A program made the position numbers and the translations under genes. The notes beneath the pieces were generated by a model. That model saw nothing but the letters and a program-made list of their open reading frames with translations. It ran no database searches and was not told where the DNA came from. A stretch of 64,000 nucleotides of DNA from an uncultured cyanobacterium (lineage in GTDB: Bacteria > Cyanobacteriota > Cyanobacteriia > PCC-9006 > JAAUQQ01): assembly GCA_963718615.1 (NCBI GenBank), contig OY970368.1:3616001-3680000 (forward strand), in the 5' to 3' direction. Below, in pieces: positions 26,386 through 41,260 of this stretch (position 1 is the stretch's first letter; every line of letters starts with the position of its first letter).

Positions 26386-28089
26386 ATGCTAATCGACGCA
26401 TTTGATGTGTCTACACGTTCTATTGTCAAAACCGATATTTGTATCATTGGTGCTGGCCCAACTGGGTTAGCACTCGCACAGGAATTTATTAATTCTCCGC
26501 TGAAGATTTGTGTTTTAGAAAGTGGCGATTTTGAGGCCGATCCTCAGACGCGATCGCTCGATCAAGGGAAAACCAGCGGAGATCCCTATTTAAAACTAGA
26601 TGTCGTGCGTAGCCGACAAATTGGTGGAACGGCCAATCAGTGGTGTGTTGAACTGCCACCTGAGCCCATTATTGGGGTTCGCTATGGTCAATTGGATGCG
26701 GTGGATTTTGAGCCACGGGATTGGCTACCCTATAGCGGTTGGTGTGTCACGTTGGAAGAATTAACTCCCTTTTTTAGGCGGGCACAACAAGTCTGTCGAC
26801 TAGGACCCTTTGACTATGGCCCAGAAATTTGGGAAGACGACGAAAATCGGCAGTTACCGCTGGTGGGCGATCGCCTCAAAACCACTATGTTTCAGTTTGG
26901 GCCACGCTCGGTTTTTATCAAAGAATTACCTCAGCAAGTGTCGAGCGCTTCTAATATTGATTTTTATTTTCATGCCAATGCGATCGCCCTCGAAACCGAT
27001 GCCGACGGCCAAACGGTTCAAACGGTCCAAGTTGCCTGTTTAAACGGCAATCGTTTTAAAGTAAAAGCTAAGCGATTTATCCTAGCCATGGGAGGCATTG
27101 AAAACGCCCGAATCCTTTTACTTTCCAATCAGGTACAGGCCCATGGATTGGGCAACCAATGGGACCAAGTGGGTCGATACTACATGGACCACCCGCTGGT
27201 TTTTACCGGCGTATTTGTGCCTGCCGATCGAAATTTGTTTAATAAGACGGCTTTATATGACAAGCGACGGGTTAAGGATACGGTCGTCATGGCAAAGCTG
27301 GCCCTAACCGATGAGGTGATTCGGGCAGAACAGGTGATGAATATGAGTTTTGTTTTATTCCCGCGCTATGAGTCTTATCCCCAAAATGGATTGCAGGCAT
27401 TTCTGTTTCCCCCCTACAGCATTTATCCGCAAGGGTTAGAGGCACTTCGTGAGCTCCGATCCGGTCAGGCGGGCAGTGTCCTGAAACGCGTCAAGCTTGT
27501 CCTGACAGATTTACCCAAGATTGGAAAATACCTCTTCCAAAAGCTAGCCCGAAAACTTCGTCCGCCCGTACCGGCTGAATTTGCCGTTGGGGGATGGTCT
27601 GATTGGTCCGATAAAGCCCGCAAGCTGCGTTCCTTTCACGTCTACAGTCAAACCGAGCAAGCCCCCCATCCCGAAAACCGGATTCTGCTGGATCGGTCCT
27701 TAGATGCCTTGGGTTGTCCCCAAGTGCGCTTGCAGTGGCAGTGGCGTGACCTGGATATTCAGCATGTTCAGCGGGCTCAGCTCATTCTCCAAGAGGAACT
27801 GGCCTGTGCAGGGCTAGGTCAACTGCATATTCAGAAAAGTCCAGGGGGGAAACCGGTGATTTTTGCGCCTTCGTCCCATCACCTCATGGGCGCAACGCGC
27901 ATGCACAGCGATCCCCGGCAAGGGGTTGTCGATGCCAACTGCCAAGTTCACGGTACGACCAATCTCTTTATTGCCGGTAGCTCCGTCTTCCCGACGGGCG
28001 GCTATGCCAATCCGACACTGACGATGGTAGCGCTGGGGCTGCGTCTGGCTGATCACCTTAAAGAGGAATTTACAGCGGAACTTGCCTAG
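26386..28089 (+). CDS. GMC-family FAD oxidoreductase
   Basis: GAGPTG, GRYYMDH, HHLMGATRM and GYANPTLT. Confidence 0.9.
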   Translation: MLIDAFDVSTRSIVKTDICIIGAGPTGLALAQEFINSPLKICVLESGDFEADPQTRSLDQGKTSGDPYLKLDVVRSRQIGGTANQWCVELPPEPIIGVRYGQLDAVDFEPRDWLPYSGWCVTLEELTPFFRRAQQVCRLGPFDYGPEIWEDDENRQLPLVGDRLKTTMFQFGPRSVFIKELPQQVSSASNIDFYFHANAIALETDADGQTVQTVQVACLNGNRFKVKAKRFILAMGGIENARILLLSNQVQAHGLGNQWDQVGRYYMDHPLVFTGVFVPADRNLFNKTALYDKRRVKDTVVMAKLALTDEVIRAEQVMNMSFVLFPRYESYPQNGLQAFLFPPYSIYPQGLEALRELRSGQAGSVLKRVKLVLTDLPKIGKYLFQKLARKLRPPVPAEFAVGGWSDWSDKARKLRSFHVYSQTEQAPHPENRILLDRSLDALGCPQVRLQWQWRDLDIQHVQRAQLILQEELACAGLGQLHIQKSPGGKPVIFAPSSHHLMGATRMHSDPRQGVVDANCQVHGTTNLFIAGSSVFPTGGYANPTLTMVALGLRLADHLKEEFTAELA

Positions 28090-39875: not shown

Positions 39876-39938
39876 GGGTTTTTAAGGGAGGGTATCTCGC
39901 CGGAAGAAGATGAATCAAATCCTTCCGGCACAACCCTA

Positions 39939-40012
39939 CGAGAATGGCAGGAGTCGAACCTGCAATCTTTGGTTTCGTAGACCAATGTGTTTTCCAATTC
40001 CACTACATTCCC
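39939..40012 (-). tRNA. trnR: tRNA-Arg(ACG), atypical sequence
   Basis: GGGAATG TA GTGG AATTGGAAA ACAC A TTGGT CTACGAA ACCAA AGATT GCAGG TTCGACT CCTGC CATTCTC G forms a complete cloverleaf with anticodon ACG. Confidence 0.85.
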
Positions 40013-40020
40013 AAATTAAA

Positions 40021-40078
40021 AGTACAGCCTAGAACATCGGTTTTGGAGACCGAAGTGTTGTTGTCACACCATCTCTAC
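40021..40078 (-). pseudogene. Decayed tRNA-Trp(CCA)
   Basis: Intact anticodon arm TCGGT-CTCCAAA-ACCGA and D-stem GTGT/ACAC. The T-loop and the 3' acceptor strand are lost. Confidence 0.55.
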
Positions 40079-40223
40079 ATACACTCTGAACAAACTAATA
40101 AAATTCTAAGGTTTCAAGATTCAGGGTTGGATGCGATCGCCACATCCCTCATCGAGGCTAGTTATCAAAATCTTTTGGGCTGGCTTTGAGGTAACTTGCA
40201 TCTCTCTTTGCCTGCCTAAATAT

Positions 40224-40252
40224 ATACTACACAACGTACTACAGAGCGTCAA
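40224..40252 (-). promoter_or_regulatory. Sigma70 promoter with TGTAGTA direct-repeat operator (tRNA unit)
   Basis: TTGACG-17 bp-TAGTAT. TGTAGTA occurs at 40243-40237 and 40231-40225. Confidence 0.75.
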
Positions 40253-40281
40253 GGGGAGCAGTGGAACCGTGCTGAGATTTT

Positions 40282-40692
40282 CTAACCCGATAGAAAGACT
40301 TGAGATTGAGTCATGGCCCAGAGTTTGTGGAGAAGACGCTCGATGCGATCGCTCACCACCGCCAAAAACATCCCCTCATGGGCATCCACATCCGCCGCTA
40401 ACCACACCCCGCGCAAGCAGACTTCGTAGGAGGTCTCATCCACGGGATAAAGGTCAACCCCTGCGGCTAGGCCATCGGGGCAATGCTGGGCCTGCTCCCG
40501 ACAGATTTCGATTTCTAGCGCCGCTAAACCGGGGATATCCCGAGGCAGTAAAAACGACGCACTGCTGGTTTCTACCCGCAGATTTTGTCCGAGTCGTACG
40601 GCTAGCACAGCCCGCTGGGCAACCAGGGTTTCCAGGGAGTCCGCTAGCCGTTCTAACTGCAACTCGCTATCGGCATAGGTCAATTTCAACAT
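40282..40692 (-). CDS. alr0857-family protein
   Basis: MLKLTY..LERL..LE..VAQRAVLAVRLGQ..SASFLLP..EVCLRGVWL..EGMF; AGGAG RBS at 40707-40703. Confidence 0.85.
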   Translation of the reverse strand: MLKLTYADSELQLERLADSLETLVAQRAVLAVRLGQNLRVETSSASFLLPRDIPGLAALEIEICREQAQHCPDGLAAGVDLYPVDETSYEVCLRGVWLAADVDAHEGMFLAVVSDRIERLLHKLWAMTQSQVFLSG

Positions 40693-40713
40693 TATGGATA
40701 AGCTCCTAATACT

Positions 40714-40748
40714 AAAAACCCCCGCTTCTGGTGAGTCAGAAGCGGGGG
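40714..40748 (-). terminator. Attenuator-type intrinsic terminator in front of the alr0857-family gene
   Basis: 12-bp perfect stem CCCCCGCTTCTG / CAGAAGCGGGGG followed by TTTTT. Confidence 0.85.
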
Positions 40749-40769
40749 CAGAAACGCTAAGGTTTCCAG

Positions 40770-41054
40770 TTAACTCAACGTAGCCGGGCTAGGCCAAAGG
40801 GGCTGACGCTGAGATCCGCTTCTGGGGATTTTGAGATGGCGTTCAAGGACGAGAGCTATGAATCTAAAACGATTAATTTGGGTCGCTTTGGGAGCGAGGC
40901 GATCGCTAGACCACTCCATCTCGAATGAGTCCTGTGGGATCGAATTCGGCATGGCACAGCCATAGAAAAGACCCGTGCACAGCGCCTTAAGCACACCCGT
41001 GCCGAGCAGGCGGCAGGTAGGCTGAAGGAAGGTGACGGGTAAACTGCGTTTCAT
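40770..41054 (-). CDS. Putative leader peptide (94 aa)
   Basis: MKRSLPVTFLQPTCRLLGT..FIALVLERHLKIPRSGSQRQPLWPSPATLS; ends 21 nt before the terminator. Confidence 0.6.
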   Translation of the reverse strand: MKRSLPVTFLQPTCRLLGTGVLKALCTGLFYGCAMPNSIPQDSFEMEWSSDRLAPKATQINRFRFIALVLERHLKIPRSGSQRQPLWPSPATLS

Positions 41055-41230
41055 GGCGCGTTGGAAGTTTGAAGGGATTAAAAGACTGAAAAGGGTGATC
41101 AAATAATCAACAAATAATCAATGGGACTGAAGTTTTTCTCTAAAGCTATTGTATCTGGGCTATTTTCCCTAAACTAGCTGTTTTCCCTAAGCCATTAAAA
41201 CAACAGCCCTGGAAAAACTGATTATTCTAG

Positions 41231-41260
41231 ATACTACTCGGATACTACAGGAATTGTCTA
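41231..41260 (-). promoter_or_regulatory. Sigma70 promoter with GTAGTAT direct-repeat operator (leader/alr0857 unit)
   Basis: TAGACA-18 bp-TAGTAT. GTAGTAT occurs at 41248-41242 and 41237-41231. Confidence 0.7.

Follow-up and report, generated by a model that had tools for sequence, protein, structure and literature searches.

The locus described here is related to the trcR (all0854)/asr0855-alr0856-alr0857 cluster of Anabaena sp. PCC 7120. According to the main text of the study on TrcR, the TrcR site of the Anabaena trn operon is TGTAGTAT and overlaps the -10 box TAGTAT (PMC10272220), and the site at trcR itself is reported as ATACTACACTTGTATTAC (Wang et al. 2023, PMC10272220). Upon deletion of trcR, asr0855 is up 9.2-fold, alr0856 (HNH) 7.2-fold and alr0857 8.5-fold without added stress. 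The same text cites chloramphenicol induction of asr0855 and alr0857, and its discussion leaves open how translational stress is sensed (PMC10272220). Tandem repeats in promoters of the trn type, long arrays of transfer RNA (tRNA) genes and an HNH gene upstream of them were described by Santamaria-Gomez et al. 2021 (PMC8421152), where a transplantation experiment indicated that the repeats have to overlap with both the -10 box and the transcription start. In Bacillus subtilis, bmrB-bmrCD combines repression by AbrB with ribosome-mediated transcriptional attenuation and is induced by translation-targeting antibiotics (PMC4191407). Here we analyse a stretch of 64,000 nucleotides (nt), the window, from an uncultured cyanobacterium (GCA_963718615.1, contig OY970368.1, positions 3,616,001-3,680,000 of the forward strand). 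It carries two promoters with TrcR-type repeats. Between the first and an alr0857-family gene lies a conserved terminator with an upstream complement that is read by a leader open reading frame (ORF), and the second precedes tRNA sequences of the array type.

These elements form two transcription units on the minus strand between 41260 and 39898. The elements named in a preliminary description are all confirmed on this strand and in the order that it stated, and its overall interpretation as a translational-stress module is supported by the analyses that follow. In the list, UTR stands for untranslated region, bp for base pairs.

41231..41260, minus strand: promoter P1, with -35 TAGACA, 18 nt and -10 TAGTAT; contains TGTAGTATccgaGTAGTAT; candidate TrcR operator.
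41249-41242 and 41237-41231, minus strand: repeats of promoter P1, TGTAGTAT in the spacer and GTAGTAT forming the -10 box TAGTAT; period 11 nt.
41055..41224, minus strand: inferred 5' UTR of unit 1, about 170 nt, its start placed from the -10 box.
40770..41054, minus strand: leader ORF of 94 codons, ATG at 41054 to TAA at 40770, frame open from 41117; position of Anabaena asr0855.
40816..40824, minus strand: segment 2, CAGAAGCGG, a copy of the terminator 3' arm; 5' strand of the antiterminator helix P1.
40774..40813, minus strand: hairpin A, inside helix P1 in the predicted folds; the leader stop TAA (40772-40770) follows directly.
40750..40767, minus strand: hairpin B (GGAAAC...GTTTCT), inside helix P1 in the predicted folds; the same stem occurs in relatives L018 and L019.
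40713..40749, minus strand: intrinsic terminator GCCCCCGCTTCTG/CAGAAGCGGGGGT with T run; the 5'-arm bases 40745-40737 double as 3' strand of helix P1.
40282..40692, minus strand: alr0857-family gene, 136 amino acids, with Shine-Dalgarno AGGAG and ATG 20-25 nt past the T run.
40224..40252, minus strand: promoter P2, with -35 TTGACG, 17 nt and -10 TAGTAT; contains TGTAGTAcgttgTGTAGTAT; candidate TrcR promoter of the trn-operon type.
40243-40237 and 40231-40224, minus strand: repeats of promoter P2, TGTAGTA and TGTAGTAT, the latter holding the -10 box; period 12 nt.
40081..40217, minus strand: leader of unit 2, about 135 nt, not significantly structured.
40028..40080, minus strand: tRNA-Trp(CCA) pseudogene, array type, 3'-truncated, recognized by DNA match and alignment to array Trp genes.
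39938..40013, minus strand: tRNA-Arg(ACG), intact, array type (ARAGORN; Rfam).
39898..39930, minus strand: stable hairpin between tRNA-Arg and a convergent amidase gene; no U tract.

While operators, gene family and tRNA arrays of this kind have been described before, the conserved leader-ORF attenuator ahead of alr0857 is, as far as the searched literature goes, undescribed. Searches on asr0855/alr0856/alr0857, on cyanobacterial leader-peptide attenuation and on TrcR returned no description of it, supplementary figures being a place where the neighbourhoods may be shown, and the consulted passages of PMC10272220 and PMC8421152 mention neither terminator nor antiterminator.

An intrinsic terminator lies between promoter P1 and the alr0857-family gene, and an alternative helix can sequester its 5' arm. 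The strong terminator noticed in the preliminary description was borne out by calculation: a stem of 13 bp at 40749..40718 with nine GC pairs, followed by a T run, reaches -26.9 kcal/mol. The same arrangement of stem CCCCCGCTTC/GAAGCGGGGG, T run and Shine-Dalgarno sequence recurs ahead of HNH or alr0857 genes across cyanobacteria. The stem core CCC(C/T)GC...GC(A/G)GGG is conserved in 70 of 78 leaders, and most of the other eight have variants of it. About 70 nt before the terminator lies a copy of its 3' arm, (A)AGCGGG(A/G)GG, which is complementary to the 5' arm. In 64 of the 78 leaders (A/G)GCGG is found 55-85 nt upstream of the core, where by a rough estimate chance would place such a 5-mer in about 6% of cases. 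When the RNA is cut after the terminator 5' arm, the minimum-energy fold consists of helix P1 around two hairpins in all members of a set of 42 non-redundant sequences, which, like a set of 64 leaders used below, was picked by patterns demanding the core motifs; at full length, all 42 fold into the terminator. The window keeps the three-way-junction topology, with hairpin sequences unlike those of Nostocales.

For the terminator and hairpin A, every measure of covariation lies above all 500 shuffles. In a wider alignment, built with an RNA model fitted to the terminator and not to helix P1, 74.4% of the helix P1 cells are paired, as against 45-53% when the partner strand is slid, and each pair of the complementary core is formed in 71-90 of 90 rows. 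The base choices in segment 2 are informative. In three lineages a T in the 5' arm (segment 3) goes together with an A in both segment 2 and the 3' arm (L033 and L040; L018 by eye), whereas segment 2 stays G where the 3' arm (segment 4) alone has changed to A (8 loci; 10 rows of the wider alignment). Segment 2 thus tracks the terminator 5' arm and not the 3' arm of which it is a copy.

The second part of the switch is the leader ORF. In the window, the antiterminator strand encodes Ser-Gly in the frame of this ORF, whose stop codon falls between hairpins A and B. Upstream of segment 2, 61 of 64 leaders have their longest open frame in the register of AGC GGG, with a median of 83 stop-free codons compared to 5 and 9 in the other two frames, and in 62 of 64 the open frame beats shuffled sequences at P<0.05. 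Across relatives the leaders measure 70-150 codons and their stop lies 9-48 nt after segment 2 (most commonly 36) and 25-57 nt before the terminator, with one outlier row (L029, 123 nt). The AGC-GGG of segment 2 is fixed at synonymous sites. The peptide itself is under little constraint: in five clades the three codon positions collect substitutions almost equally (for Nostocales, the pairwise differences number 2883, 2946 and 2691). The leaders of the window and of two relatives from the same family share only the start context (CC-ATG-AAA) and a C-terminal RSG, tblastn found no relatives of the peptide in 12 loci, and no NCBIfam family matches it. A frame that is kept open while its peptide drifts is what is expected if the act of translation is the function.

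The element is widespread and closely tied to alr0857. A covariance model of the RNA (R1) matches 62 of 151 sampled cyanobacterial genomes of the class, mostly once and in some genomes up to five times; by pattern as well as by model, the combined terminator/segment 2 element occurs once in the source genome. Among the 30 best R1 matches an alr0857 gene follows within about 1 kb in 29, and an HNH gene lies downstream of the 30th. An HNH gene stands in between in 16, trcR is found upstream in 16, and GTAGTA occurs 200-900 nt upstream on the same strand in 27. The element is hence tied more tightly to alr0857 than to HNH or trcR, and since by our reading of the rows 14 of these 30 matches do without HNH, the HNH-less layout of the window appears to be a common and stable form. 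Of 96 sources, 93 contain the element according to the RNA model, which misses L018, L097 and L102. The latter two, which are of Planktothrix type, carry trcR with its operator followed by alr0857 and have neither attenuator nor HNH gene, which makes them natural attenuator-loss variants. At the other extreme, five genomes (G077, G504, G413, G514 and G428) hold 3-5 attenuator copies each, which points to several alr0857 modules per genome.

The operator layer was assessed by comparison with the published sites. The preliminary description had pointed to the TrcR system of Anabaena and had seen the same repeat at both promoters, and both statements hold: a TGTAGTAT site over the -10 box and the 8.5-fold rise of alr0857 in the trcR deletion are published (PMC10272220), and promoters P1 and P2 both carry tandem TGTAGTA(T), with a site of the TGTAGTAT type overlapping or adjoining the -10 box. 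The last six bases of (T)GTAGTAT are the -10 box TAGTAT itself. In 77 related loci, the operator next to trcR can be aligned with promoter P1, and the two agree in the -35 box, the repeat period of 11 nt, the -10 box and the layout of the trcR-divergent promoter, with repeats in spacer and -10 box. The consensus of the 77 loci consists of a -35 box (T/G)AGACA, a spacer half-site GTAATA (GTAGTA in the window) and a -10 half-site GTAGTAT. Promoter P2 aligns with 12 of 13 array promoters over CCCCTTGAC(A/G), TGTAGTA, TGTAGTAT and the first bases of the leader. The pattern GTAGTA-N3-9-GTAGTA has two matches in the window, and in none of 100 shuffles were at least two found. The whole genome of 6,095,823 bases contains four matches, two of them at promoters P1 and P2. 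A control with the pattern read backwards gave 15+15 matches, so the genome-wide count of the double repeat alone represents no enrichment and it is the placement that counts. The 8-mer TGTAGTAT occurs 26 times genome-wide and 3 times in the window, where 0.40 would be expected; the third window copy (27177-27184, minus strand) is situated inside a 588-codon open frame of the opposite strand and is probably due to chance.

A repressor acting in trans had been postulated because neither a repressor nor an HNH gene adjoins the locus. The source genome indeed encodes a trcR orthologue elsewhere, at 824912-825277, with 54.6% identity over 108 amino acids (E 4.8e-23) to the TrcR-position protein of relative L006, and this gene is preceded by its own TGTAGTAT. 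It resides 2.8 Mb from the module, so repression would act in trans; on the strength of the homology of the two promoters to tested sites, repression of both by the TrcR orthologue is plausible. A PRC-barrel gene (Pfam PF05239; 41473-42495, plus strand) is divergent from promoter P1, where most genomes carry trcR. The absence of an adjacent HNH gene extends to the whole genome, in which a search for an HNH gene of the module type found none. The sole long HNH match, at 4454374, was considered and rejected: neither an operator nor an attenuator precedes this gene, which is a different one. The published trcR motif, allowing at most one mismatch, is present in 65 of 401 sampled cyanobacterial genomes, and nine of the twelve loci fetched from this search contain a full-length relative of the 136-amino-acid protein (38-44% identity) divergent from a TrcR-like gene. 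Two further sites were noticed in the source genome, a double repeat GTAGTACGTGTAGTAT that follows a -35-like box, TTGCGG, and precedes an ABC transporter gene (G000:C1:4332502-4332517, L003) and TGTAGTATTTGCATAGTATGCGTAATAC upstream of an MFS_2 transporter gene (1152394, L110). Both genes probably belong to the TrcR regulon of this organism as well.

We consider it probable that the locus is a trans-controlled piece of the TrcR translational-stress response, in which repression by TrcR is combined with ribosome-sensed attenuation. Promoter P1 would be repressed by the trans-encoded TrcR orthologue. After transcription the 94-codon leader would be translated, and its last 17 codons would cross segment 2 and hairpin A. 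A ribosome keeping pace with RNA polymerase would occupy or unwind segment 2, such that the terminator forms and transcription stops 25 nt before alr0857. A lagging ribosome, as would be caused by translation inhibitors, damaged tRNA or amino-acid analogues, would leave segment 2 free to pair with the terminator 5' arm first, and the resulting three-way junction would block the terminator and allow transcription of alr0857. Promoter P2 would drive the remnant of a tRNA array with a dead tRNA-Trp fragment and a spare tRNA-Arg(ACG) that looks functional. The direction of this switch fits the chloramphenicol induction of asr0855 and alr0857 cited in the main text of PMC10272220. The attenuation layer proposed in the preliminary description is backed by the comparison across the phylum as far as terminator, complement and open frame are concerned; that the leader ORF reads ribosome progress we infer from the arrangement of these parts. 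Going one step further, we tentatively suggest that leaders of the asr0855 type could be a phylum-wide 'ribosome race' sensor, a long ORF of arbitrary sequence that would serve solely to gauge the lag of ribosomes behind RNA polymerase, would gate alr0857 and, where present, HNH by way of the three-way-junction antiterminator, and together with the labile TrcR might form a two-key lock on the translational-stress response.

Several observations weigh against this reading. The repeats sit in the spacer and at the -10 box, with a third one in degenerate form at the predicted start, whereas the experiment of 2021 called for repeats over the -10 box and the start. As the sets of 64 and 42 sequences were chosen by core-motif patterns, the invariance of the motifs and the folding in 42 of 42 cases are partly true by construction. 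Helix P1 has an almost invariant core and hence weak covariation: 15 of 500 shuffles attain its covariation score in the first alignment and likewise 15 of 500 in the wider one, and its percentage of paired cells is attained by 57 of 500 and 34 of 500, respectively. Helix P1 is also short, with 6-9 bp as compared to 11-13 bp in the terminator. With the commonest stop 36 nt past segment 2, a ribosome waiting there would by a footprint estimate not cover segment 2, and masking must therefore occur in transit or by steric hindrance. Finally, deletion of trcR in Anabaena raises the genes behind the terminator roughly as strongly as asr0855 itself, so that the terminator is not absolute but leaky.

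Some of these points would suit a simpler explanation, in which the terminator just marks the end of a separate small gene or small RNA located where asr0855 lies, alr0857 is expressed only by constitutive leak-through, and the copy of the arm is kept on other grounds, for instance for the sake of the encoded peptide or of a stable transcript. It could draw on the annotation of asr0855 as a protein gene and its listing as a clade signature protein, in the parts of the literature covered here, on the terminator as the thermodynamic minimum of every full-length fold and on the weak covariation of helix P1. It does not explain, however, why AGC-GGG is fixed at synonymous sites of a peptide that is otherwise barely constrained, why segment 2 follows the changes in segment 3, or why alr0857 is downstream in 29 of the 30 best matches to the RNA model. 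Moreover, only 20-25 nt separate the T run from the next start, and a scan for a promoter between the terminator and the alr0857 start found none. We regard this explanation as unlikely, but as the strongest of those competing with ribosome-sensed attenuation.

Slightly less likely still is a riboswitch-like or a protein- or tRNA-binding antiterminator, in which a ligand or factor stabilizes helix P1 while the ORF that overlaps it plays a secondary part. An ON riboswitch would have this architecture, with helix P1 around two hairpins and a 3' strand common to the terminator, and the conserved bases adjoin the junctions. Such an element would be new, as tRNA is all that Rfam at gathering score returned for the window region and for six related loci. 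On the other hand, a pure ligand sensor has no need of a long frame in fixed register, as seen in 61 of 64 leaders, with a stop always in the junction region, and hairpins whose sequences differ wholly between lineages while the topology is kept argue against a specific ligand pocket.

The gene downstream of the attenuator was correctly assigned in the preliminary description. The 136-amino-acid protein matches NCBIfam NF045647 (alr0857_fam) with 134.8 bits, above the curated cut-off of 75 (E 1.5e-39, positions 1-121 of the 121 of the model), and the family has 19 invariant columns over 29 relatives. For the comparison of neighbourhoods that had been suggested, a search of genome contigs with the family alignment gave 476 relatives, of which the best 80 loci were kept for neighbourhood counts; evaluated by script, these 80 have a TrcR-like gene upstream in 73 cases, an HNH match between operator and alr0857 in 73 (five being fragments), and in 13 they run on into a tRNA array with 3-23 genes within the 3.5-kb flank. 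Two relatives from the same family as the source organism illustrate the range: in L019, HNH, alr0857, a TGTAGTAT promoter and tRNA-Asp follow in order, and L018 has leader, attenuator and alr0857 without HNH or tRNA genes.

Pfam contains no family for the 136- or the 94-amino-acid ORF, a Pfam scan across the alr0857 family gave nothing beyond scattered single matches, and a search of PDB with the sequence profile gave no match. The structure prediction proposed in the preliminary description yielded a confident AlphaFold model with an alpha/beta fold (predicted local distance difference test 87.5) but no clear structural relative: the best Foldseek E value was 0.024, no chain among 48,161 reached Z >=5, and no fold was assigned. 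In a language-model search, clusters of alr0857 proteins are neighbours of clusters with 16-40% members of WapI-type immunity proteins (Pfam PF24716), and alr0857, too, usually follows a nuclease gene; in contrast, none of 29 family members matches WapI in Pfam at E up to 10, and a structural match is lacking as well. The WapI neighbourhood fits the idea of a nuclease inhibitor and is a lead only, which sequence searches do not support. Conceivably, the alr0857 protein serves the HNH nuclease as inhibitor or immunity partner and has persisted in this genome as an orphan.

The second unit contains what remains of a tRNA array. The atypical tRNA-Arg(ACG) of the preliminary description is intact (ARAGORN; 67.1 bits in Rfam), of array type and distinct from the housekeeping copy: the source genome has 49 tRNA genes including a second, housekeeping tRNA-Arg(ACG) at 5333001, to which the window gene is 58% identical as compared to 69-72% for five of six array Arg genes (45% for the sixth, in L033). 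The decayed tRNA-Trp stands as an alignment-based assignment: the fragment at 40080..40028 is 75-78% identical to three of five array Trp genes, 61-62% to those of L029 and L039 and 52% to the housekeeping gene. It keeps the acceptor 5' strand, D arm, anticodon arm and first half of the T stem, ends in the T arm and has lost the rest; neither ARAGORN nor Rfam calls it a tRNA. With array-lineage tRNAs and a trn-homologous promoter but not many tandem tRNA genes, a truncated array-type Trp gene and an intact array-type Arg gene represent the remnant of an array and not an array. Since in arrays Glu, Tyr and Ser genes stand between Trp and Arg(ACG), deletion would be the simplest history. The structured leader assumed behind promoter P2 had to be rejected on the shuffle test (z -0.74; 43 of 200 shuffles fold as well). 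Of the closing hairpin, the stability was verified (-23 kcal/mol, z -4.39, 0 of 200 shuffles as stable), and the U tract is missing. Note that the link between alr0857 and the tRNAs rests on the shared operator and on adjacency, the two being separate transcription units; this adjacency, seen in 13 of 80 alr0857 loci, is conserved, yet it is not evidence of a shared transcript.

In view of these losses, it was considered whether a mobile unit of trcR, HNH, alr0857 and tRNA array has left behind no more than a decaying relic without function in this genome. The HNH gene and an adjacent trcR are missing, the array is down to one gene and a truncated one, and the third promoter repeat is degenerate. 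This idea is nonetheless improbable: the two promoters are intact, as are leader frame, switch, alr0857 ORF (134.8 bits) and tRNA-Arg (67.1 bits), and HNH is also lacking in 14 of the 30 best matches to the RNA model. It is most improbable that the GC-rich inverted and direct repeats act as DNA, as a recombination or homing-endonuclease target tied to the spread of the module, for which the conservation of the stem sequence itself, beyond pairing, across the phylum and the proposal that HNH genes adjoining arrays promote array spread (PMC8421152, main text) could be cited, because T run and Shine-Dalgarno sequence, as well as a constant location ahead of a coding start, fit an RNA terminator and the element persists without an HNH gene.

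A few additional observations concern other parts of the locus and the source genome. The 5' UTR of unit 1 contains three spaced copies of TTAG(G/A)GAAAA (41190-41134, minus strand), and the same-family relative L042 has two TTTAGCGAAAACA copies between its terminator and its HNH gene; the 10-mer occurs 29 times in the genome, which by a rough estimate is close to chance, and only the clustering is odd. Among the tRNA genes of the source genome, Val(CAC) and Met lie 3 nt apart (G000:C1:2037063-2037214), and a second Val(CAC) and a 98-nt tRNA-Gln call were listed (positions 3702529 and 5938324). In two Nostoc loci the array tRNA-Arg(ACG) (L057:6102-6197 and L103:6046-6142) carries some 20 additional nt behind the anticodon arm, which could be an intron or a variable-arm insertion.

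If ribosome-sensed attenuation holds true, the attenuator is a second, cis-acting stress sensor within the TrcR regulon that can be read from the sequence. It links the alr0857 family more closely to the stress response than the HNH gene beside it is linked. Module and tRNA arrays appear to travel and decay together, and the source genome holds their minimal form.

Classical leader-peptide attenuators such as those of trp, his and pheA rely on competing antiterminator and terminator helices with the leader stop just upstream. The window shares the competing helices and the stop close upstream of the terminator. It differs from them by the absence of an evident run of regulatory codons, by a leader that is 5-10 times longer and by the predicted signal, which would be overall ribosome progress and not the supply of a single amino acid. 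Compared with the trcR/asr0855-alr0856-alr0857 cluster of Anabaena sp. PCC 7120, the sequence of the operator and its position relative to -35 and -10 boxes are the same, a leader ORF occupies the asr0855 position and an alr0857-family gene follows downstream, whereas trcR is 2.8 Mb off and an HNH gene of the alr0856 type is absent. With the trn operon and the L-arrays, as presented in the main text of PMC8421152, the second unit has in common the tandem repeats around the -10 box, the array-type Trp and Arg(ACG) sequences and the position after alr0857; it differs in having one intact and one truncated gene instead of up to 43 genes, in lacking the upstream HNH gene and in its degenerate third repeat. 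The closest analogue is bmrB-bmrCD of B. subtilis, to the extent that it is portrayed in PMC4191407. Sequence, phylum, repressor family and downstream gene are unrelated, the leaders of the class found here run to 70-150 codons with an unconstrained peptide, and the cyanobacterial attenuator is a prediction from sequence. What both would have in common is a promoter under a repressor and a leader ORF, putatively translated in the window, with alternative stem-loops and an intrinsic terminator, and inhibitors of protein synthesis would be the expected inducers of the module in the window as well.

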